Below, piece by piece: positions 29,030-45,382 of a stretch of 64,000 nt of DNA. The stretch lies in NCBI GenBank assembly GCA_030167865.1, contig JALAGF010006658.1:1-64000 (forward strand), read 5' to 3'. This stretch comes from Craspedostauros australis. Lineage: Eukaryota. How positions within the stretch are numbered: the stretch's first letter is position 1; each line of letters opens with the position of its first letter. Below the pieces are notes generated by a model. That model searched no databases, was not told the DNA's origin, and saw nothing but the letters and a program-made list of their open reading frames with translations. The position numbers and the translations under genes are program-made.

Positions 29030-30388
29030 CGCATGCGGCAATCATGGTGAAGGTGGTGGCCATGGCGGTGGCCATGGCGGTGGAGGTCGGATCCATGGAA
29101 ATAGAACTCCAATGAAGATGGGCACATGATGTGATGAAGATCATATAATATCATGTCTTTTGATTTCTTCCAAATGCATCACACCAGTAGTGGATAATAG
29201 CAATTGTAACGCACCATGCTTTACCCTCACGGAGTAGAGTAGAGTAGAGCAGACTGGAGTAGACTGGAGTGCTCCATTTCGTTTTGCACTCGTTGGCACA
29301 GATGAACCTTTAACAGCATCAAATGGGGCCTCCAAGACGCCTGGACAATGTTACAATTGGTGCCATTGGCGAAGGAGCACTATCTATTCTATGTAGTGCA
29401 GTGCCACCAAGAATCACCACACGGCTTGTGACACAACATCCCTCGCGGAATCATGATGTCAGAGGCTCCCCTCCAGCGTCAGTTCGCAAGTGGGGATGTT
29501 TTGTTCGATCGTGATTCGTGGACTGGTGCCTCTTTCGTGAGAGTCGCACAAAATCAAAGAACATCGAGATCGCTCACTCACCAGAGAAGGAAGTTCTCAA
29601 TCTTGGATGAGCACGCGAAAGTTCTCAAAAATATGTGGACTTTGGAAGCTCGGTCAAGTTATGAATGAATTGTATATTATACTGCATGGTTTGAACGATG
29701 ACGACATTCAACATAAGACCAGAATTTAATAGGTATAATGTGTAATTGCCGTACATTTTGACACGATCCTGACACATGCTGACAGGCCCTTCTCCTTCTG
29801 CACAACCCAGAACAGAAACAAGACACCTCACACAAAACCAAGAGGCGCGAAAACTGAACGAGGCGATGACTTTGCGTGCCTGCATCTGGCACATCATTAT
29901 CTTTTGACTTCGAAGGAACACACCTCACCTCATCGCATCTCTGCTCATCTCACATTGCTTCAATTGAACACACTCAAACTCAAGCCAAGAGAGCCAAAGA
30001 AAGGCAAAGAGAAGCTCGGATCCTGGAACAGAACACTGAGAATCCAGAAGGTGGGTCATTCGATTGATTTGGGACGCATGGAAATTGGAACAAATCGAAG
30101 CAACGACCATGGCGATGCTGTCAAGGAATCCATCCTATTGCAAAGCCCTGCGGTTGCCGTCTCGTCCACCGCGCAAAGGACATCATCTGTGAAGAGGAGT
30201 ACTCGAAGTCTGACTCACTTGAAATCGATGCCGTCGTCTGCTTCTTGTTGATTCTTGGTGGTATCGTCATTGTTTTGCGCCTCCACACATCACCGACCAA
30301 CTAACAACCTCCACTCCATTACTCCACTTCTTTCTTTGGGTTACTGGATTGTTTGATTGCGCACTCACAGGTTCACATCAACAACAGC

Positions 30389-32152
30389 ATGACGAAATCA
30401 ACCTTCATCTTCCATCGCAGAGAATGGGTCATCTTCGCTCTCCTCACCATCGGTCTTCTCGTCGCTCGCCAGAAAACGGCGGGCGAATCGGCCAAGCAGA
30501 TGAAAAGGAAGAAGAATCCTGCTGAATACACCCAGTATCGGCTGCGCGATATCGACCCAGTCGGATACCGTCACAAAAGCGACGACCCCCACACAGATGG
30601 CAACCTCTTTGCCAACGAAGACAACGTGTATCGCATGCAGAACGAGCTGCTCAAGGACTACTGCACGCCCACCGCCAAGGCGCTCTGCTGGCAGAAGCTC
30701 TCCATCTTCAGCGCGCCATGCGGATTCAGTAACTCCGCGCCGCACGATCCTGCATTCTCATCCTTCATGCACCCCTTCCTGACCGATCCGTCCAACTGTC
30801 GGTTCACCTTCTGGATCGACGAGAAGCTGCCTCAGGACAAGTACGAACACGAGAAGGAGCACAGGAATGACGCTCTCCGCCATTTTGTGCGCAACATGAT
30901 CGAAGAGCTCTACCTCTTCAGCAGAGAGTACAAGTGGATCACAGAGGAGAATGCGAAGGACAATGGCAAGCCAATCTTCCACATGAAACAGACAAACGAC
31001 ATTCAGCATCTGTTTCGCCTCGTCGTGCAGTCGGTCGAGGAATACTTGAGCAACAAAGACACCATGACGATCCACACCTCGCACGATCCACACCAGATGA
31101 TCATCCGATTGCATTCCAAGCAGTATGATGACACGGACGCGAATCCCATCAACACTGCCGAAGTCCAGATGTCGGGTCGCCATCTGTGGCTTTACACCGA
31201 AGTTTGGGATTTGGTGGCTGAAGTCATTCGGGAATACCAGTCTTGCGCCGCTTCGTCTGCTTCCGAAAGCGGCGACGAAGTCGAAACAAACAGAATCATC
31301 AATGACTGCCTCGCGACTGATTCCAAGTTGCTGGATAGCTTCCAGTCCAATCCTCATGAGTATGACCATGCCTTCCGCAACGATTTCATCTACCTATTGG
31401 ACTTCGCAGCGAAGCACAGGCACGAAGATGAATACGGCCATCGCCACCACAGCGGCCGTGAACACACGAAGCTCGAGCATGACTATCCCACCATCGCAGA
31501 GGTTCATATGGTGAGCAATTGTCTTTGGGGCTACTATGAAGAAGAGAAGATCGTCGATCCCATGTGCGGCGTGGCCATGGAACATGCCGCGATTCGCATC
31601 GAACAGCTGGCAGTGGCATCCCACGAGGAGACGTACGAAAAAGAAAAGAGAAAGTATCACGCCGCACATGACTGGTACTGTCAATGGAGCATCGCATTCT
31701 GCGTGGTCTGCAACATCCTCATCCTCTCCGTCCATCTCAACGAATGGGCCAAGGACAGAGGATTCTTCTCCGTATCGTCCTCCGCCCTCAACAGCGCAGG
31801 TGGCGGGGGCCCGAAGCTACCTGCCATGGTGACGCTGCAGGTCCGACGCCTCCTGCTTCTCCACATCATCGTCACCATCGCTGGATGGTGCGCGTTCTAC
31901 ATCCATTACAGCGAGAGCGAGGACACGAATTGGCCAGAGTACTCGGTGATGTCCGATCGCGTTCCCACTCACATCTACATCAACACATGCCTCTGGTCGG
32001 CGATGACGTTAGTCGCGTCGTACCTGCTGGCACTTTCCACGGACCTTCGTGAGAACAACTCCGCATCCACACGTCGACCATCTTTCATGTTCGGTCAGCC
32101 AGCAGCTCTTGGCTACGAGTTGGCAGTGATGGAGGCGGACCCCGAGAGTTGA
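30389..32152 (+). CDS. Orphan membrane protein (N-terminal anchor, large His/Cys-rich domain, three C-terminal TMs)
   Basis: 587-aa ORF with coding-like codon use; probable 5' UTR intron acceptor at 30370; no family motif recognised. Confidence 0.75.
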   Translation: MTKSTFIFHRREWVIFALLTIGLLVARQKTAGESAKQMKRKKNPAEYTQYRLRDIDPVGYRHKSDDPHTDGNLFANEDNVYRMQNELLKDYCTPTAKALCWQKLSIFSAPCGFSNSAPHDPAFSSFMHPFLTDPSNCRFTFWIDEKLPQDKYEHEKEHRNDALRHFVRNMIEELYLFSREYKWITEENAKDNGKPIFHMKQTNDIQHLFRLVVQSVEEYLSNKDTMTIHTSHDPHQMIIRLHSKQYDDTDANPINTAEVQMSGRHLWLYTEVWDLVAEVIREYQSCAASSASESGDEVETNRIINDCLATDSKLLDSFQSNPHEYDHAFRNDFIYLLDFAAKHRHEDEYGHRHHSGREHTKLEHDYPTIAEVHMVSNCLWGYYEEEKIVDPMCGVAMEHAAIRIEQLAVASHEETYEKEKRKYHAAHDWYCQWSIAFCVVCNILILSVHLNEWAKDRGFFSVSSSALNSAGGGGPKLPAMVTLQVRRLLLLHIIVTIAGWCAFYIHYSESEDTNWPEYSVMSDRVPTHIYINTCLWSAMTLVASYLLALSTDLRENNSASTRRPSFMFGQPAALGYELAVMEADPES

Positions 32153-32535: not shown

Positions 32536-35500
32536 TCACCGCCGTGCCACAGCGATGGAGTGGAAGACATCCATCACGCGCGGCGCAAGGGCTGTGAGAC
32601 TGTCGTTAATCAGCTTCAAAAAGAAACGTTCCGCCTTTTCGTCTGTAAGATCCAATTGGAATCGTTCCTCCACGCGAGCAATCACACCGTCGGGATCGGC
32701 CGTTGGGTTATTGGACAGATCTTCAATGCCAGCATCGCTCATGAGATGCAGCAGGTTCAGGACGAGACCGGCGCTTTTGCGCAACGCGTTGAAGGCTTGG
32801 CAGGACAGGGAGCAGAACTGGCGGTATTCCACAGAATCCAAACCGCCCATGCCTTCCACCATCTCTCGGGTGAGACGGAAGGGAGGGGGTAACGGTTTCG
32901 GGTCTCTTCCGAACATGAATCCAAAGTCGATGTGGAAGAAGCGTCCGGTCGTCGTGATGAGGATGTTTTCCAAGTGCCGGTCACCCACGCCCAGCAGGTA
33001 CGTAATGACGCAATACCCCGCGCAGCTCCGCACGTAGGCGGACATCACGTCAGGCCGGACGTCGTACTTGGCACCCGCTTGCGGGGCGCAAGTCTTGAAG
33101 AATTGCAGGATGGAGTTGTTGTGCTTCGCCAAGATGGCCGCGACGGGGATGGAGTCGTTCACAAAGTCTACCAATCCGGACGTTTGCGACGTTGCGATGA
33201 TGGAGTACGGGGTGAGACACAGATCGAGCGTGGCTCGTTTCAAGAGGCCGTCCATGAGCTGGATCATCATGATCACCAGCTGGTCTTGGCGCAGATCATC
33301 TCCCGTCTTCACGATCACCTTGTACCGCTTCGGCAGGCTCTTGGAGGCGACTTGCTCTGCCGCCACATCCTGCTTGTTGGAAATGGTGGAGGTGGACGCA
33401 GACACGACGTTGAACTCGAGAAGGGCGGGGTACAGCGCGGACTTGAACATCTTGGCGTTGCTCGATTGGACTCCGTTGACGATCAGATCTGGCGCTGATG
33501 GCAGCGGGAACGGCTCCCGTTTGGAATCTGGATCGAAGCTGCCCTCCTCCAGCAATTTGATGAGATTCGCCTCCTTGGCATCCTTCTTGCCTCTCGTATC
33601 GCGACCGGCAAGCTGAGCGTCCATGATCCCGGAAATGAAGACATCCTGATTGGTGAGGACATCCCACATGGACAGTTTGGTCCTGTGCGAGCCGGTCCTC
33701 CCGGTCGCCTTGCTGCTGGCGTTGCCTTCCGCGCCGACCAATGTGACGCCGAGTTTCGACACAGAATTGACGATCGATTTCAGCGAAGACTTCACCTTGT
33801 CGCCACGTGCATCGTGCTGATGCGTCCTCGCTGCCCTGTGCGCCGCGTCCATTGCATCCGGGCCATTCGCTCCCATGACATTGCAGGGTGTCTGCGAGAG
33901 TTTTTGTTGCAGTTCCGCAAACACCTCTCTGTACCGTGCTCCGTACGCCGCGTCCTGCAATTCGACCTTGAGGTACCAGTACAGATAATTGGCCAATTGG
34001 AGGTTCTTGGATGCGCGGTCGATCAAGAAAGTTCCCAACGACGTCGCCGGGGTGTTGTTGGCTCCCGCCGGAATGGCGTTGCCCGCAGCATTGCCGCTGC
34101 TGTTGGTGTCTTGCTGATTCTCGAACTTCAACGCCTGCACCAGCTGCAACAGGTAGAGCCGCAGCTCGTCGTCGGGCGCCGAGGCCAAGGTGTCGATCGC
34201 GTAGGCACGGACAAGGTTGGTCTGGTACGCCACCTGCTTGCCGAGAAGCTTGAGCGCATCCGTGACTTCGATCGGACTCCTCATGCGCCACTGCTCAAGA
34301 AGCTCGGCGGCCTGAACCACCTCCCCCTCGACCGTCCAATCCACGGCGAGCAGAAACTTGGTGAGGGCCCGGCGGTTCTCCACCAGACTGAATCTGAATC
34401 GCCAAAGCAAATCCTTCTCCTCTCTCGTCGGGTGGTGCGACGGCGAGGCGATGATGGCGGCAAGCTGATCCCGCTGCATACGATCTGGCTTCAACGCCGG
34501 ATCCACCATGCCGCGTAGGAGATCGTGCGCCAGCGCGCGGTATTTGTCCTCGAAGACGTTGCCATCGTGATAGTCCAAAAACGGCACCATGTCGAGCGGC
34601 GAAAAGTGGTGATGGTTGGATGACGCATCGTTCATCATGTCCCGCTGCTGGGATTGGGCCCGGTTGTTCTCAAATTCCAACGATGACACGTTGCCTGACA
34701 CGCCCTGGCTGGACAATGCGTAGAACGTCTCCTCGTGCATGATTGGGACAGCGAAGTTGGGCAGCTCCACAACGAGGCAAGATGGGGACCGCTGGTCCGC
34801 GTAGTCTGCGGTGGTGATGGCATTCTGGAGTATGTCATCGCAGTGCTTCGTCGATATCTTGTCGAGCCACGGCACTGCTGGAATCTGGCCGACGACCACC
34901 TTGTTCGTCGCCGACGGTGGCTGATCCTGCAGACGGTTGATGCGGTCGAGAATCAGGGTCGCCTCCCATACCTCGTCGGGCGTGTCCTGCTTGGACTCCT
35001 GGCCTGCAGTAGACGCCGCCGGATGGGCGTGACTTGCTGTGTGGCCTTGGTTGGACGAGTAGCGATCGTCACGGCTTTGCAGCACACCCTCCGCATCATG
35101 GAGCGGAGTGAAATCCAACTTTTGGAGCCCCGATTTGAGCCGCCCAAATTCGTCGAACAATCTCATGGAGACCTCATGGAGCTGCGACAGCAAGCATCAA
35201 TGGAGTAGAGTGTGTTGTTGTTGTTGTTGGATTGTACAGTAAGCACGAGTATGCATACAGTAGATGTTGGTGAGGGATGTACGTCAGTATAGTGGAGGGC
35301 AGGGAGAGCAGGGAGAACAGCAAGGCACAGGCAAGAGCTTCCCACGAACCGCGGCAACTTACCAAGCAATCCGCAACACCCAAAACCTGAAAGTTGAGGT
35401 AAGTATCGCGCGGCAGATCTCTCCAACGCAACGGGATCTGAATGGCTTCGTTCCATTCGCAGCAATGCGTGAAGCTGGCAACGCAGGGCCGCAGGGCGTC

Positions 35501-35782
35501 CATGCTGCCCTTTGGACGCATCGTCGACGTGGAGGTGAACGTGGGCACGGGCACGAGAGGCACGCCTGCTGCGCCGTGCACGCTGACGCGGACCTTCCAA
35601 TCATCGATGTCCCACTGCGGCGCAGGCACAGCGGCATCGAGGCCGTCATCGTCTTTTCCCAAGAGGGCCGACCGCACAACAACGACGACGTGCGACGTTT
35701 GGGAGACCGAAACGTGCGGCATCCATGTGGCGTTCATCCAGCGGTTGTCATGCTTGTTGCTGTGGACGACGCGTCGCGCCAT
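32536..35782 (-). CDS. VPS34: Class III phosphatidylinositol 3-kinase (exons 35782-35363, 35181-32536)
   Basis: C2 region WNEAIQIPLRWRDLPRD, EKDLLWRFR, YLLQLVQALKFE, FKSALYP, KTGDDLRQDQL, GVGDRHLEN, HIDFGFMFGRDPKP; phase-0 intron GTAAG..CAG. Confidence 0.96.
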
Positions 35783-36600: not shown

Positions 36601-39600
36601 TTAGAACCCGCCAAATGGCTGCTGTCCATAGGATTGCTGTTGTATCGGCGGCGGCATTTGCTGTCCGTAGGGTGGTTGCTGCTGCTGCTGCTGCATTTGT
36701 TGGCCATACATCTGCTGCTGCTGTTGCTGCTGCGGCGGGTAACCCGGAGCACCCTGTTGTGGGTATTGCTGCTGGAATCCACCAAAGGATTGCTGCTGCA
36801 TCGCTGGTGGCTGCTGCTGTCCGTACTGTTGTTGTCCGTACTGCTGCTGCACGGGTGGTGGCATCTGCTGTCCTCCCCCGTTCATCATCGATGGTGGCTG
36901 TTGGCCGTACTGCTGCTGCATGGGTGGCGCCATCTGTTGTCCCCCGCCATTCATCATCGATGGTGGTTGCTGCGGCGGCAGGCTTCTTTGGCTTTGCTGC
37001 GACATTGTAGTTGAGGCCATGCCATACTGAGCGCCGTAGCCTCCGTAGTTGCCTTGGGTTTGATTGCTCGACAAGACCAACGCGTTCGACTTCATGACCT
37101 CCTTCTTTTGGCCAGAGGACTGTTCCAACAAAGAAGCGGTATGGTGCACAACACAATACAGTACGTCGAATCAAAATTGTGGCAACATAACATTTCAGAA
37201 TAAGAGACATGTGGCAATGCATTGGTGTGGTATGGACGAAGGAAACAAAATGATACGAATTTGCGAAATGGTGAGTCAATGCGTTCATTTCCAGAAGTAT
37301 CAACAAGAGCAAACTTCGAACGAGTCCTTGTGCCGGGTCAAAGTTTTGCACAAGGAATGCGTCACGTTACGTACATCGCTCTTCTTGGCCCGGATATCTG
37401 CCAAGGATGCCGTGTTGTTTTTGGCTGCGGCAGGTGGATCATCGAATGGGTTCTTGACAGAAGACTGTGTGTCTTGCATCAACGAGAAGGAATCCAGGTT
37501 GGCCAATTTCGCGTATGCCTGATCTGCCATCGATCCGTTTTGGGTGCCTGGCGTGGGAGCGACCAGATCCGGTGCTCCTCCAGCCAAAGTCGACATGGTG
37601 AGAGCTGGGTTGGAGCTTGGTGCCGGTGCGCTCTCAGGTGGCTGCGAGAATTGGAGGCCACCTTGCACAGGGGCTGGTGCAGGTGCAGGAGGGGCTGGTT
37701 GGAATCCGAATGCTGCGGCAGATGGATCGACTGCAGGCGCTGGTGCCGGTGCTGGCATTGCCGCTGGCATGGAAGCTGGTGGCTGCTGTGGAGCAAAGGT
37801 GTTGGGGGCAGATTCTGCCACGCCAAAAGGACCTGGCGAGGCAAATCCCAAGCTGGAAGTGGTGGTGTTTGGGGTGAACCCCGGCTGTGGCGCAGTGACG
37901 GACTTTGGCGTGGTGAGGAAATTGGAGGCCGGCGCGGCAGTCGGAGGTGGGACTCGCAGGGAAGCTGGCTGTGGTGGAGCCTGGGTTTGAACTGGTGCCG
38001 GAGCAGCGAAGCTACCGAACGGATTCTCTGGTGCGACTGCCGGAGCTGGTGCTGGAGCTGGCATTGGGGCCGGTGGTTGCGCAAAGCCGTTCATCTGGCC
38101 ATTCATCTGTGCATAGTTCTGGGCTGGTGCAGCTGGTGGCTGTGGTGGTGCTTGACCAAACGGCGCCTGAGCCTGCTGTGGCTGTGGTGGCACAACATTG
38201 GCATACGGATTGGATGTTGGAGCTGGCACGATGGCGCCCGCAGCACCGGCGTGGGCGGTTGGTGGATAAGCGATTGCTGTTGCCATCGGGGGCGGTGCGG
38301 AGTAGGCAGTAGAGTCGAAGCTGGGTGTTGGTGCGATTGCCTGAGGAGCGCCGAACGGGCCGCTAAACGATTGCATGGCACCACCCGCTGCTGGAGGCGG
38401 TGCGCCATACATGTTGTTGTCGAGTGTCGCGACTGCTGTGGCGGTCGCCATTGCCGGTGGGCTGCGAATGTAGGAGGGGAACCAATCACAAATAAAATAG
38501 AGCATGGTGGAATGTTTGGACAACAATGAGGATGACGGAGGGCGCCGAAGCGAATGGAAGGAATTGGAGAAAGCGTGAGGGATGATGTGACGAACAATGC
38601 CATGTTGACAGCAACGACGACACGACGATTCTGACGTGTATCCAATTGCATCGGGTTTGGCGCTCCCAAGTTTCTTCATGTCCACCTCGTCGAACCAGGC
38701 AAGATCTCAAGTGTGCATTTTCAATTGACGTACCCAGTGGCTGCAGGGGCACCAAAGTCCAGCAACAGATCACCGCCACCGGACGGAGGTGGTGCAGATT
38801 GGACCGACGCTGCGGAGGACGGTGCCGCTGCTGGTGGACGTGCTTCGACCAGCGAGTTTTTGATCGCCTCCTGCAAGTACAACTCCTCTTCATCTGGGTT
38901 GTGAGGAGCCTCGAGGGAGGCGATGCCGGTGGCGCTGCGGGTGCTGGCAGGACCACCGGAGCGGAAGCCAGACCCGCGATCGGCCATGGATGGTGGAGAG
39001 CGCGGCGATCGTGCCCGTGGGTCGTTTGGTGCGAGGCCCAAGCGGAAGACCTTGGGGAATGAGAAGAAGCTCTGACCGTCGACGAAGAAGTCGTACTGAC
39101 GGAATCCTGGCGTTGGCGACAAGGGCGGAGATGCGTGCGCGATGATCTTGAGCACATGGTTGCCGCGCATGGTCCAGCTGAATTCAAAAATGTTGTTGCG
39201 GCTGTTGGAATAGTGGATCTCCCTGCCATCCGACAACACCAGTCGCTTTCCCGATGTCAAACTCCACACGATGGTGACATCATGCTCTTCTCCACGGCAT
39301 GCTGTCCCGGTTAGGCCGTTGGCCAGGGCCTGTGGATCCGCAAAGCCAAAACGCCTGTGGTATCATCGAGATCAGCGAAGGTGTGTGGGGACCGCCACAT
39401 CATTTTCCGATTTGTGATGTTATGAGCACGAGTATTGGCATTCGTCAACATGGATCAGAGCCACCGAGGTCGTCAATTTTCCAATCGGTCAATGCATCGA
39501 CCGATGGATTCATGAAGGAGCCGACGAAGAAACCCGCGAATGAAGGAATGGTGTTGATTGATTGATTGATTGTTGCAGCCACAGTGGATGATCCAAAATG

Positions 39601-40260
39601 TCGCACGCGACGAGCATAGCATTGTTGGCATGTGGAGCATCATGATCATCATGGTCACGTCGGACAATGATATCGAGACGGCAAGGCGGTTTCCATTGCG
39701 GGTGTTGATGGGAAGAACAGGCCGATCGAAGCATCATGGCATTGCACGATGGATCCAAACAGAAGATATCACAGCACAGAGTGAGGAAATGTGTGGTGTG
39801 GGTTGAGGTGGTATAGGCACAAAGCATCGCATCGCATACAAACGATACGACACGATAAGATACGTTGCAATACGATGCGCCCACACATGGATCCCTGACT
39901 GCCAAAATGTTGAAATTGTTGGCCGACATTCCTGGTAAAAACATCCCCTCCTGTTGGTTGTGGCTGCAGCCCGCGCCCCTCGGGAAAAGATTCTGCCGAG
40001 CTGCATCTCCCAATTGGATTGGCAAGCAGGTGTGAAGTGGGATGAAAGAGGTGCGAAATATGAAGCTAAAGATGCAGAGAAGTGCGAGCTGACAGCGATC
40101 ACCGCCTGCTCGCATCCCGACAACTTCGCCCCGATTCTTCCCTCTCCATTGCGCAGCCGCGCGAGACGTACCAGCGAACGCGGCGTTTGGTGCTGGCGAT
40201 CCGCTTGCCAGAAGCCACCGCTGTGAAGTCGATCTGGTAGACGTGAATGTTGCGCGCCAT
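36601..40260 (-). CDS. FAIM1-like domain + UIM + clathrin-box/NPF motif protein (exons 40260-40172, 39354-38734, 38461-37375, 37119-36601)
   Basis: Three GTACGT..CAG introns join four segments in frame: MARNIHVYQIDFTAVASGKRIASTKRRVRW|RFGF...EHDVTIVWSLTSGKRLVLSDGREIH...YDFFVDGQSF, EEELYLQEAIKNSL, DLLLDF, ENPF, KNPFDD, Gln-rich tail. Confidence 0.8.
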
Positions 40261-41115
40261 CGTCGCTCGTTGCTCTGTTCGACGGTTGGTGGAGGCTCAA
40301 GTTAGTTGATGGCTCGATTGGTTGGTTGGGTCCTCGATGAATGAATCGAGAGATGTGAGGGAGGAGAAGCAAGGAGGAGGCAAAACAATGGACGAGGTGC
40401 TTGTGTATTGTGTCCGCACCATGCGATCCGAACGATGTTGTTCCCTCTCTCTGCCGCTCACGGAGGATGGTACTGCTCGGCACCGGTTCCCACCCACGAC
40501 AAGCGTTCGTGCACAATTGTACGCGACAACACCTCCTTGTGGGAGTCATTCGACGAATGTTCGGCGCCGTTCGGTCACTTCCGTGTGAAGCGCTGCGCAT
40601 TTGAAAATGTCGAAAAATGCAAATGGCAGTCTTCCGAGTCACGTAAACGAACCACCACCAAAAAAGTCGCATCTTTCGTTTCCCAATCTTGTTTCATGTG
40701 TGAATCCCGGTTGCACATGAACCGTCCATGCGTCGGCGGTGTGACATCAAACCCAAAGATACAAACGACAGCCTTTGAAGGATTCGCCAAGGTGTCAATC
40801 AATCCACGACGTGATTGTTCCGCAAGGGGCGTCTGGCACTTCCACGGTGGCAGTTGTGGCTGCGATCTCGGTGAGGGATTCAACGAGCACGACCTCTGCC
40901 ATTGCCTTCCGCAGTCCTCACAGTTCCCACGCGCACGTACCTGGAGGTGCTCGTGTCTTGCTTCCGCTTCCATTGTCCACACAATGCTTCCACTCGCAGA
41001 ACCATCCTAGACGAGCGCGTGACAAGATATCATTTTAATAGATGAGAGAAGATCAAGTGCAGATAATACTATCCGAGAATCTTGTCCTCATTGTGAGAGG
41101 AGGCGTAATATCTAT

Positions 41116-42876
41116 ATGATGCACCATTGCAGCATGGGAGGACGTGATGGCATTCCATCGCAATCATGCATCATGGCATTGAGTGAGGACGTCCCAACAC
41201 GCAGCAAGTGTTGCGCCAAGATGCATCACAGTGACAAGTGCCAACCGATACGAGGCCGAAAGCGGAGGCTCTTCACGGTGGCATCGGTGGCGATACTGGT
41301 GTCTCATATTCCATCATGCGATGGTGGACGACCGCATCAGCACAGATCCTTCATGTACCAAGGTCGTCCAGCCGCCACAGTGGCCGCACCTCAGTTGGCA
41401 CAATCACACTCTTCCTGGTCCCCAGTCGCAAGCACGCGATCCATGTTCTCGAAGCAAGGTGGCACGCTGGCATCGCTCAGCCCCGCCAACGTGTTCCAAT
41501 CCGTCATGGATCGCTGGAACTCGGCATGGGGCTCGGGTGAGGGAGCTGGCGGTGGCGAATCAAATGCATCCAACATGCGGACGGGTGAGGATGGTGCCAA
41601 GTCGGAGCATGTGGACGGAACCGTCCTTTACAGATTCTACGGACGATCGCGCACGAGATCCGATGCGGCATCCGTGCCGCTCATATTTCTCGGATCCAAC
41701 GTGGATCACTTTCAGCGCGTCGGTCGCCTCATGGCATCCAGGGGGTTCAGCGTCATGGCCTGCGAACAGATCAAGGATTCCTCGTCTCGTGATCAATCAA
41801 CTCGCACGTCTCCACAGCAACACCAGCAGCAGCAGCAGCAGAGCCAACAGCAAATTGTATCAACCACAGGCCGAATCGCGGCACCGCCCCCACGCGGTAG
41901 CGACGGATCCGCGGAGTCCGACCAAAACATCGTCGCCAGAATACTCAAGGAGCTGCGTTGGAATCAGGTCATTCTCGTGGGGTTCGACGATGAGGCCATT
42001 GTTGCGATTGAAAGCGCGTTGCAGCTGGCACCCGATGCTGTCGTCGGTCTCATCCTCAGTGGTGATCTCGTGAAATCTGATCGGTTGGCACGCGACAGAG
42101 GCTTTCCGGTTCTCGACTCCTTCCTACGCAGGACATTGCGATGTCCCTTCATCATCATATGGGACGGGGACACGCCACCCGCGTTGCCCATCGCCGCATC
42201 CACAACCGGCGCAAATCAACTGCGTTCCGATGATCCCAATCCCGATCGGCGTCTCATTCACGGCTCTTCGCCACACAGAACGCAATCCGAACAATTCACA
42301 TGGATCCTCACGCGCTTCATCGAAGAAAAGATCTCCAAGGATCATCGCAACACATCGCTGTCGCCCAAATCTCCGCCCGCCCCGTTGGATCGATTCTTTG
42401 CCACGCTACCGTTCGGTATTGATGCTCTCGTGACGGAGGAGGGGCGTATCGTGATTGGACGGGCCATGGCGACGGCCATCTTCTACATTGCTGTGATGCG
42501 GATACTAGTGGTACAATACGGCTTGCTTTCATCCGGCATCGCCACGATCAAATCGCGCTACGACTCATTCGATGCATTGCGCAAACGCGTCTTTCAGGTC
42601 GTCAAGAATTTCATTCTCAATTTCGGATACTTGCCCCGCTTATTTCGAATCCGAAGGGCGTCAGACGACGAGGACGAAGAGCAATCACCGCCCCAGCAAG
42701 ACAAGGCGGACGGCGGTGATGCTGACGCAGATGCTAAAGATGATACGGACGCGGATGATGCAGAGCCATCTGAATCCAATGACATGGAAGAGTACGACAG
42801 CGACAATGAAGAGAAGGAACAAGAAGAACAACGAAACTTCCGACCACGATTCTTTCTGGATCATGTCATTGCTTAG
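41116..42876 (+). CDS. Divergent alpha/beta-hydrolase-fold protein with a C-terminal TM
   Basis: VPLIFLG..VDHFQRVGRLMASRGFSVMACE, ILKELRWNQVILVGFDDEAIVAI, APDAVVGLIL, LRCPFIIIWDG, SPHRTQSEQF. The true start is uncertain. Confidence 0.65.
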   Translation: MMHHCSMGGRDGIPSQSCIMALSEDVPTRSKCCAKMHHSDKCQPIRGRKRRLFTVASVAILVSHIPSCDGGRPHQHRSFMYQGRPAATVAAPQLAQSHSSWSPVASTRSMFSKQGGTLASLSPANVFQSVMDRWNSAWGSGEGAGGGESNASNMRTGEDGAKSEHVDGTVLYRFYGRSRTRSDAASVPLIFLGSNVDHFQRVGRLMASRGFSVMACEQIKDSSSRDQSTRTSPQQHQQQQQQSQQQIVSTTGRIAAPPPRGSDGSAESDQNIVARILKELRWNQVILVGFDDEAIVAIESALQLAPDAVVGLILSGDLVKSDRLARDRGFPVLDSFLRRTLRCPFIIIWDGDTPPALPIAASTTGANQLRSDDPNPDRRLIHGSSPHRTQSEQFTWILTRFIEEKISKDHRNTSLSPKSPPAPLDRFFATLPFGIDALVTEEGRIVIGRAMATAIFYIAVMRILVVQYGLLSSGIATIKSRYDSFDALRKRVFQVVKNFILNFGYLPRLFRIRRASDDEDEEQSPPQQDKADGGDADADAKDDTDADDAEPSESNDMEEYDSDNEEKEQEEQRNFRPRFFLDHVIA

Positions 42877-42948: not shown

Positions 42949-44496
42949 TCATTTGGTACTGCCACCCAATTTTGACGTGTGTCCCGAGAAGGCGGTGAAG
43001 TCATCCACCATGCTGGTACCATCCGACTGAATGCTAAATTCATCCCCGTTGTCGGCTACCCGTCGGCCCTTCCAGGAGAAAGATGTTGCAGACTTGGCGG
43101 AGGGTCGGCCGGAGAATCCTGATGATGACGACCCGATTGTGCGAGTGCCGTACGGGTGGCGGAATCGTCCGCTCAGATCCTCATGAGCGTAGCCGGAGTT
43201 GCCTGTCTGCTCGATGGCGGAAATGTCGGTGCCGAAGGGGGCCGGCGTGATGGGCGATATCAAGTCGTTGCGCTTGGAGTTGTCAACGCCCAGGTCGATG
43301 CTTGGGAGGTCGAGGTGGAGGTTGGAGACGCTGACGAAGCTGGCGCTCGCTTTCGACGTGTCGGCAACCTGAACCGGGTTGGAGGTGTAGAGACTCGTGT
43401 CGTGGGACATGAAGGACTGCGATGGAGTTGGTCCACGGTTGCTGGATCGAACTGGAGCACCCGCCGCTGGGTTCTGGTTGCGTCGTGCATTCTGCTTGAA
43501 CAGGCTCGTGCGGATATTGTGTGGATTGATGCGATTGACTCTGTATGCGCTGGGCTTGTTGCGGGCCGCATTCTTGCTGGCAGCTGCGGCGGTTGGCTTA
43601 GCGGAGTGCATTCTTGGACTGCCTTCGCCGGATGATTCCGAGCGGGTTGGAGCCAGCTCGAGAGACTTGGGCATGATGTTGCGTTCCACATCGTAATCCT
43701 CATTGTCGTCCTGATCGTCGTAGTCGTCGCCTAGGTACAGGTATCGGGCGAGGAACATGAAGAAGATGCAGAGTGTACCACCTCCGAGGATGGCTCCGAC
43801 GTACATGATCAGACGTACTGTTTCCTCGTCCTTCCAGAACTTGTCAGACTCGTCGCCGTCACCGTCGCCGCTTTTCTTGCCCGACTTCGAAACTTCATCT
43901 TCGCCAGTTTTCGTCACCTGCTGTTGGTCCACTTCGATGATGATGTGCGTAAGACTTTCCATGAAGGGCGACTTCGAGTTCTCCAGAATCATGTCCACGT
44001 AGATCTGTTGGTTGGAGCCGCGGAATGCATTCACGAGAAGATCGTTGATGAAGTCCTCCGTGGGCTTGGTGTCAGAGTTGAAAAAGAGCAACCCGTCGAA
44101 CTCCAACGTCGTAATGAAGCTGCCATCCAGTCCGTGAATACCGAAGGAATCAACCGAAAGCGCAGAATGAGAGAAGACGCTCCCATCTCTATCGGTCGAG
44201 TAGTACGCGGTGAAGTACTGATCCAGGAAGGACGTGGTTGTTGAGAGAATCTCGGAAAGCAGAATGCTGTTGTCCGACTTCACCTCGGATCGGAGCTGCA
44301 TGATGATCTTGCTCAACTCCACTTGTCCTCCCAAGGCGGCATCAAAGTTGGTGGCCATCAGGCAGACGCAGAGCATCGCCTTGAGAATCGTTTTCATTGT
44401 TGTCACCGCCATCGTTGTCGGTTCGTTTGCCTCGGTTGCGTTCGGTTGCGTTTGGTCTTCTGTATCGGGTGTTGCTTGTTGCCGTCGTTGTTCCAA
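42949..44496 (-). CDS. Hypothetical single-pass (type I) membrane protein
   Basis: Signal-like ILKAMLCVCLMATNFDAALG, a compact ectodomain, TM LIMYVGAILGGGTLCIFFMFLA and a Ser-rich tail. Confidence 0.75.
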   Translation of the reverse strand: MEQRRQQATPDTEDQTQPNATEANEPTTMAVTTMKTILKAMLCVCLMATNFDAALGGQVELSKIIMQLRSEVKSDNSILLSEILSTTTSFLDQYFTAYYSTDRDGSVFSHSALSVDSFGIHGLDGSFITTLEFDGLLFFNSDTKPTEDFINDLLVNAFRGSNQQIYVDMILENSKSPFMESLTHIIIEVDQQQVTKTGEDEVSKSGKKSGDGDGDESDKFWKDEETVRLIMYVGAILGGGTLCIFFMFLARYLYLGDDYDDQDDNEDYDVERNIMPKSLELAPTRSESSGEGSPRMHSAKPTAAAASKNAARNKPSAYRVNRINPHNIRTSLFKQNARRNQNPAAGAPVRSSNRGPTPSQSFMSHDTSLYTSNPVQVADTSKASASFVSVSNLHLDLPSIDLGVDNSKRNDLISPITPAPFGTDISAIEQTGNSGYAHEDLSGRFRHPYGTRTIGSSSSGFSGRPSAKSATSFSWKGRRVADNGDEFSIQSDGTSMVDDFTAFSGHTSKLGGSTK

Positions 44497-45382
44497 TGAT
44501 CGTAGTGTGGATCAATGCAGTGCTAGTCTCTGTCAGTCTTGTGGTGGTCGGTGGCTTGGTTGGTTGGTTGGTTGGTTGGTTGGATGGAGAGTTGTTTCAG
44601 TTCGTTTTGTGATATGATGATGTGCTGATGTGAAGGTTGGATGAGCTGAGATGAGATGGTGTGAGATGATGAGCGGAGTCGGAATGAGAGGAGTTGCAGA
44701 GGATACAGCAGAGGGGAAGTTGATGCGTCTCCTTGTTGCTGTTGCTGCTGTTGTTGTCGTCGTTGTCTCTGTTTTCTTTCTGCTGATGATGTTCATCGAT
44801 GTGGTGGCACTTCACAAGTGAGTTGCCAAGGTGGGGCCATACAATCGTCTGGCTGCCATCTTTGGACTCGTCGTCACTTGCGTCGTTGTTGATGTGATGC
44901 TATTGTTGTGAATGCCGTTGTGATCGTTGTTATCATTACTTTCGGTGTTATCATCGATCTCGTTGTTGGTGGTGGTGTGGCCGTTACTGTTGACGAAAGT
45001 TGTGGAGTGTTGTTGGCAGGTCTTCGTTGCACAGAAAACGGTGGTGCTTGTCGCAACTCCACAACGAACAATTTTTGAAATGTGAGTGTCTCAAACGAAG
45101 TTTCTCCACCACCAAAGTAACGGTCATATTTTGGTTCGCTTTGCGTAGTACATTGGCTTCGATACCATGAGAAAACTATCTAGATGGTAGCAAATAGAGT
45201 TCGGAGAAGAAAACCTGATTGTCTATCCTTGGGATCCGTAGGCTAGAAATGAGAATGACAACATCAAAGAGAGAAAAGTCAAGAGCGTCACTCTCTCCAG
45301 ATAAACGTCCATTTAGTTCCTGCTCTATGAGAGTATTATGCTGAATATAGCCATGTTTGGTGTTCGGGCATCCATAGTTTGA

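Follow-up and report, generated by a model that had tools for sequence, protein, structure and literature searches.

The window analyzed here, a 64,000-nucleotide stretch of Craspedostauros australis contig JALAGF010006658.1, carries on its minus strand a gene whose four exons join into one open frame encoding a protein of 771 aa (Table 1). A preliminary description of this DNA had proposed that four exons not linked by the open reading frame listing belong to a single protein with an N-terminal domain, an acidic helix, DLLLDF, two NPF motifs and a Pro/Ala/Gln tail. Both proposals held: the introns are of the GT-AG type, the joined frame is single, a homolog (P0028) aligns across every junction, and each quoted element is present in the 771-aa protein, with NPF at residues 383 and 574, a Pro/Ala-rich region at residues 241-600 and 33% Q in residues 601-771.

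Table 1. Coordinates of the four-exon gene, its conserved elements and its neighbors in the window.
Feature	Position	Strand	Details
Exon 1	40172..40260	-	ATG at 40260; extra N-terminal strand, basic loop, start of first FAIM-module strand
Intron 1	39355..40171	-	817 nt, GT-AG, phase 2 within Trp codon
Exon 2	38734..39354	-	Remaining head, linker, UIM-like helix, DLLLDF
Exon-2 portion of head	39033..39354	-	Whole head is residues 7-137
UIM-like acidic helix	38844..38894	-	Residues 184-200; helical in both models
DLLLDF, clathrin-box-like/DLL motif	38754..38771	-	Residues 225-230
Intron 2	38462..38733	-	272 nt, GT-AG
Exon 3	37375..38461	-	Disordered Pro/Ala-rich region, first NPF (38025-38017), conserved distal block
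Conserved distal block	37393..37527	-	Short helix ending LANLD, then NPF (37452-37444), then SLADI
Intron 3	37120..37374	-	255 nt, GT-AG
Exon 4	36601..37119	-	Conserved KKxVM...VLSS element (37107-37066), Gln/Gly/Pro/Tyr-rich tail, TAA
VPS34-type class III PI 3-kinase (neighbor)	32536..35782	-	Starts at start codon candidate; outside the feature
Divergent upstream frame	41023-42876	+	617 aa stop to stop; no Pfam match over cut-off; alpha/beta-hydrolase-like by eye

The gene is real. P0028 is an uninterrupted, transcriptome-derived homolog with 61% identity to the 771-aa protein in an alignment that spans all three junctions, the identical residues numbering 29/30 in exon 1, 97/110 in the exon-2 portion of the head and 103/172 in exon 4. 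All six transcriptome-derived proteins that we compared are continuous across junction 1, and the motif at the exon 1|2 junction is uninterrupted in 61 of 74 orthologs. The position of intron 1 is common to 10 of the 13 related genomic loci inspected, the intron being absent from the other three. Around junctions 2 and 3 the sequence is poorly conserved, and support for them comes mainly from P0028 and the splice signals; all three introns have GTACGT...CAG ends. Contigs from run X1, whose kind we guessed, cover exon 4 with its downstream flank, exon 1 into intron 1, and the 3′ part of VPS34, and none of them bridges an exon junction; one stops exactly at 37119, the exon 4 boundary, which we take as a weak hint. 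The X1 contig from exon 1 extends 59 nt into intron 1. The position of this intron recurs across subfamilies A and B and a fifth, RRM-like subfamily (described below), one protein (P0164) retains extra in-frame residues at the site, and retention of intron 1 may be common.

The VPS34-type gene on the same strand starts ~818 nt past the stop codon of the four-exon gene. Its Pfam matches to PI3Ka and PI3_PI4_kinase are over the cut-off and that to PI3K_C2 is below it; the C2 domain is divided between two frames (35968-35174 and 35196-32536), which points to an intron near 35200-35380. This adjacency had been put forward as suggestive. A tblastn search with both VPS34 frames found no match in 72 related metagenome loci, only 11 of which extended 4.4 kb or more past the head (nine after merging near-identical pairs, seven ortholog-like and two paralog-like), and the downstream frames in these long-flank loci are unrelated to VPS34. 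A meaningful linkage is not supported by these loci, and the adjacency looks like chance. The divergent upstream gene also neighbors the related loci L010 (37% identity) and L017 (31%), and not the other loci with long upstream flanks; its recurrence at two loci indicates that conserved neighbors were visible to the search. A strict pattern for the spliced, full-length frame proved too narrow for these loci, matching 1 of the 72. Two further frames in the window, 30305-32152 (+) and 42949-44511 (-), are long, have no Pfam match and contain stretches that look like membrane segments.

The fold of the head was modeled on homolog P0148, which is 70% identical to the C. australis protein across the exon-2 head. 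The AlphaFold2 model (127 sequences) is a beta domain with pLDDT ~90 over residues 41-140, and a full-length model of P0028 contains the same single folded domain, the remainder being low-confidence coil with three short helices. The head had been likened to FAIM1, and the fold searches bore this out by ranking FAIM domains first. In a structure search of 48,161 chains the best match was the human FAIM N-terminal domain (3mx7; Z 8.0, rmsd 2.9, 84/90 residues, 21% identity), followed by the FAIM C-terminal domain (2kw1, Z 6.4), with the next chain reaching only Z 4.4; by the note accompanying the search tool, a Z of 8 on its own is borderline. Foldseek likewise ranked 3mx7 first with a probability of 1.00 and an E of 0.0096, which falls short of the 0.001 mark. 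Pfam FAIM1 (PF06905) gave weak matches in 12 of 86 relatives (E 0.018-0.69), always on the head and starting at profile positions 10-13, the best of them at 15.2 bits, so that none of the 86 reached the cut-off of 22 bits, and exon 2 of the C. australis gene itself had no PF06905 match. In the ESM Atlas the lead for the head was a FAIM1 cluster at 0.86, and once FAIM1 was excluded no score exceeded 0.83; Atlas scores under 0.9 are leads only. Because the structure, profile and language-model leads agree, we regard homology of the modeled head to FAIM as very likely.

As modeled, the head consists of one FAIM-type beta module plus an additional strand at the N terminus and an inserted helical segment. 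It is basic, with 18 K/R vs. 10 D/E in residues 1-137 and a median net charge of +5 across 62 orthologs, a value merely suggestive for PI(4,5)P2 binding. Neither the exons nor the 86 relatives have a Pfam match to ENTH, and the modeled head is all-beta. Querying the PDB by sequence, either with exon 2 or with profiles, returned nothing meaningful, and a genome profile search with PF06905 found no match, its controls included, and is hence uninformative on absence. The Pfam family IcmF_C was also considered for the head and rejected: its matches (17/86, ~30 residues, all below cut-off) outnumber those to FAIM1 and have no backing from the fold searches.

With the exon-2 head as query, a word-indexed search returned 408 proteins at E ≤ 0.001 and a full scan 742 representatives; among the best 120-150 matches all organism names listed are diatoms, and a wider range is possible. 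Of 372 proteins, 357 had a head that was nearly complete, and a tree of the 264 that reached 330 aa or more separates four subfamilies with weak supports (0.62-0.78): A, which includes the C. australis gene, B, C and D. Motif counts were taken on 74 A proteins (at least 500 aa, two B-like tips dropped), 29 B and 34 C proteins (at least 400 aa) and 117 D proteins. DPF/DPW occurs in 25/29 members of subfamily B; no UIM was found in the 34 members of subfamily C, which, judged by sequence pattern, has lost it; and subfamily D has a UIM-like helix in 105/117 and L[LI]SFD in 61/117 and has not kept NPF. A fifth subfamily of at least 30 matches (P0388-P0417) continues after the head with a helical region and an RRM-like domain, for which 13 of the 17 members scanned match RRM_1 (E up to 1), one of them over the cut-off; we found no member of it in the C. 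australis genome. The lack of a UIM in subfamily C and the RRM-like domain of the fifth subfamily indicate that the head is not tied to trafficking. The C. australis genome has four copies of the head family, and the three paralogs vary: in L002 the UIM is more canonical (Pfam E 0.0033), in L003 it is missing, and in L004 a divergent helix goes together with LISFDD.

Beyond the head, conservation is limited to short islands. We counted tail motifs in the 74 subfamily A orthologs and compared them with shuffled tails. The UIM-like helix occurs in 74/74 orthologs (shuffle mean 0.3, maximum 3), the LLDF-type box in 72/74 (2.7, 9), NPF in 74/74 (7.9, 15), DPF/DPW in 50/74 (5.9, 15) and an LxNxD-type element in 36/74 (1.4, 6). 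There was no enrichment of P[ST]AP (21/74 vs. a shuffle mean of 14.5 and maximum of 21) or of PPxY (25/74 vs. 27.2), and YxxPhi and FxxF-type motifs were at chance level. Since the patterns were picked after the family had been seen, and the orthologs share ancestry and are not independent, these counts show conservation, not function. The preliminary description had named conservation of the UIM, DLL and NPF motifs as a check; the motifs are conserved, with the qualification that in subfamily A the UIM and the box depart from consensus, and DPF/DPW and the second, LxNxD element come in addition.

The UIM pattern of subfamily A is L-x-x-A-x-x-x-S in 74/74. An HMM scan, named earlier as a check on the UIM, gave a divided answer: none of the 15 subfamily A proteins scanned, nor exon 2 itself, matched Pfam UIM (PF02809), whereas the helix of three paralog-type proteins of subfamily B (P0173, P0176, and P0182) passes the cut-off. 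The A helix aligns column for column with these Pfam-positive B helices, and a UIM or UIM_2 match at E up to 1 was obtained for 26 of 86 proteins scanned. At one position the A helix has Tyr in at least 80% of rows, the residue there being acidic or small in the UIMs that Pfam recognizes. Among 61 LLDF boxes none has D or E as its fifth residue, and because this final acidic residue is absent the box misses the strict clathrin-box consensus, which in the accessible parts of PMC5694535 and PMC1249560 is given as L-Phi-X-Phi-[DE], final acid included. The box does contain DLL, a motif type that the same part of PMC5694535 describes as used by AP180. The strict pattern occurs anywhere in the tail in 24/74 A, 18/29 B, 27/34 C and 70/117 D proteins; in the C. 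australis copy the clathrin-box candidates are DLL and LANLD. Clathrin boxes bind in extended form, and the LxNxD element closes a predicted helix in the P0028 model. This element, LANLD in C. australis, is LVN[LFIM]D in 20/74 A, 14/29 B and 18/34 C proteins, LVNLD being described as the stronger clathrin box of epsin 2 in the accessible portion of 10.1101/2022.08.04.502746. The distal NPF lies 17-20 residues past the distal helix in 33/33 proteins measured. DPF/DPW is absent from the C. australis 771-aa protein. When the DLLLDF segment, a disordered partner, was modeled in complex with the clathrin terminal domain, the prediction scored 0.02 against a mark of 0.34, and we counted the result neither way.

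Partners for each motif exist in the C. australis genome: it encodes clathrin heavy chain, an Eps15-like protein that combines two EH domains and a coiled coil, a protein resembling EHD, and the C-terminal domain of AP-2 alpha. The ENTH profile has four matches there, three of them over the cut-off, and since ENTH genes are retained the FAIM-like head does not replace ENTH genome-wide. The earlier wording, a FAIM head “instead of ENTH,” is thus right for this protein and too broad for the genome, and the head is also joined to the RRM-like domain. The best ENTH gene, which is only partly assembled, has no UIM in the two frames read, in line with PMC4824007, which in the part available describes ubiquitin recognition by epsin homologs as gained in opisthokonts. 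Genome profile searches were uninformative on absence for VHS (no match, controls included) and for GAT (one sub-threshold match). Three further ENTH/ANTH-like genes of C. australis (L006, L007, and L008) have unusual layouts, L006 placing an ENTH-like domain after a long N-terminal region and L008 having an ANTH/ENTH-like match after a long acidic, Arg/Ser-rich region.

The overall architecture of the protein, a folded, basic, single FAIM module followed by a long disordered tail conserved in short motifs only, invites comparison with several known systems. Epsins have a folded head and a disordered tail with UIM, clathrin motifs, DPW/DPF and NPF (10.1101/2022.08.04.502746, section available), and human EPN1-3 and yeast Ent1/Ent2 resemble the diatom family in this layout, the yeast proteins also in their Gln-rich stretches. 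The diatom head, however, is modeled as an all-beta FAIM module where that of epsin is an all-helical ENTH, one UIM-like helix stands against two or more in epsin, and in the first box the final acid is missing. Homology to epsins was not detected at the sequence level, and true ENTH genes are separate in the same genome; the protein is epsin-like in layout and not an epsin, for it has no ENTH. With FAIM/FAIM1 (PF06905; 3mx7, 2kw1) it shares the beta fold, but has one module where FAIM has two in tandem, together with the extra N-terminal strand, the helical insert and a 630-residue motif tail; it has the FAIM fold and is no FAIM ortholog by architecture or Pfam score. ESCRT-0 Hrs/STAM, TOM1, and GGA are similar in combining a ubiquitin-binding-type element, a clathrin-box-like motif and a Pro/Gln-rich region, whereas the diatom protein lacks VHS, FYVE, GAT and P[ST]AP enrichment and its family has NPF and DPF/DPW; neither the exons nor the 86 relatives gave a Pfam match to VHS, FYVE or GAT. 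EpsinR and AP180-CALM also have DLL-type motifs in a disordered tail (PMC5694535, in the portion available), but the diatom protein differs from them in lacking ENTH/ANTH, in having a UIM-like helix and in its few motif copies.

We consider it probable, from the motif content and by analogy, that the protein is a cytosolic ubiquitin-cargo clathrin adaptor assembled by diatoms independently of epsin. Drawing on epsin biology, the UIM-like helix would capture membrane cargo tagged with ubiquitin, weak contacts to the clathrin terminal domain would come from DLLLDF and the distal LxNxD element, NPF would bind EH domains of Eps15-like or EHD proteins, and the Pro/Gln tail would help clustering at coat sites. 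DPF/DPW, present in most orthologs, would bind the AP-2 alpha appendage. The head, in the place of ENTH, would most likely be a putative anchor to a coat protein surface or acidic lipid. Because non-opisthokont epsins reportedly lack UIMs (PMC4824007, as far as its available text goes), the family is a candidate for the selection of ubiquitinated clathrin cargo in diatoms and would supply the ubiquitin recognition missing there. An adaptor function is suggested by the motifs: four motif kinds for four coat partners co-occur, and the UIM, box and NPF are in epsin order. Against it are the lack of a Pfam UIM match in subfamily A, the missing acid of the LLDF box, the location of LANLD at a helix end and the lack of DPF/DPW in this copy.

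Hrs likewise combines a UIM with a clathrin box and a Pro/Gln-rich tail, and there is a minor chance that the protein is instead a ubiquitin- and clathrin-binding sorter of the endosome or trans-Golgi network, like ESCRT-0 (Hrs/STAM), TOM1 or GGA, that would pass cargo to ESCRT and not act at the plasma membrane. LISFD in 49/117 subfamily D proteins fits such a role, and NPF also serves endosomal EHD proteins, one of which the genome encodes. The protein has no VHS or FYVE domain, however, P[ST]AP and PPxY are not enriched in subfamily A, the enrichment of DPF/DPW points to AP-2, and the adjacency to VPS34, which would favor a PI3P link, is not conserved.

Two other readings depart further from clathrin coats. 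UIM-like elements can bind ATG8, and the conserved Tyr of the A helix, which sets it apart from Pfam-positive UIMs, would suit a proteostasis or selective-autophagy factor whose head and helix recognize ATG8 or proteins that are ubiquitinated or aggregating, whose Gln/Pro tail condenses and whose short hydrophobic motifs serve other partners. FAIM itself is described as recruited to ubiquitinated proteins (PMC7056718, PMC6628066, accessible parts). We consider this reading improbable, as it leaves unexplained the fixed spacing of the distal NPF, the enrichment of DPF/DPW and the two clathrin-box-like motifs. More doubtful still is a scaffold of another process, with the head as a general diatom interaction module and the likeness to epsin partly coincidental; reuse of the head with the RRM-like domain and the two motifs that miss the strict consensus speak for it. 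The joint conservation of several independent kinds of endocytic motif speaks against it, as do the textbook motif forms of sister subfamilies.

The molecular job of FAIM is a long-standing puzzle, and its fusion in diatoms to ubiquitin-, clathrin- and EH-type motifs is a domain-fusion clue to it, the architecture hinting at a FAIM fold working in membrane trafficking. The diatom fusion fits an independent prediction, given in the accessible part of 10.1101/2025.11.10.687652, by which human FAIM binds the beta-propeller of BBS1 in the coat-like BBSome. Tentatively, and as a proposal that we think may well be wrong, the FAIM module could be an old membrane-coat accessory domain and not an apoptosis-related novelty of animals. 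From it diatoms would have made an expanded family of ubiquitin-cargo clathrin adaptors free of ENTH/ANTH/VHS (a convergent epsin), animals having kept the stand-alone tandem form with its predicted BBS1 docking; on this view the surface that FAIM uses would also serve the diatom head, for binding to a coat beta-propeller or an acidic membrane. The domain-fusion clue to FAIM and the candidate role in cargo selection are both testable in diatoms through knock-outs and tags.

In the titles and abstract openings of the literature searched, we found neither a FAIM-domain protein in diatoms nor this architecture, and the sections of PMC9894196 available to us do not mention FAIM. The family is conserved and expanded across diatoms and its domain architecture is apparently undescribed, and orthologs may be listed as unknown proteins in the supplements of diatom papers. 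FAIM has been described as holozoan and without homologs (PMC7056718, PMC6628066, in the parts accessible). The single match to the head in a prokaryote collection, L088 (2998-4723), lies on a contig filed in a bacterial assembly and is an intron-bearing, diatom-like gene of the fifth subfamily; the contig is probably misassigned. In the ESM Atlas, bacterial proteins of only 77-90 aa are similar to the head in features at scores <0.9, a cluster of them being 29% FAIM1, and single FAIM modules may occur in bacteria.
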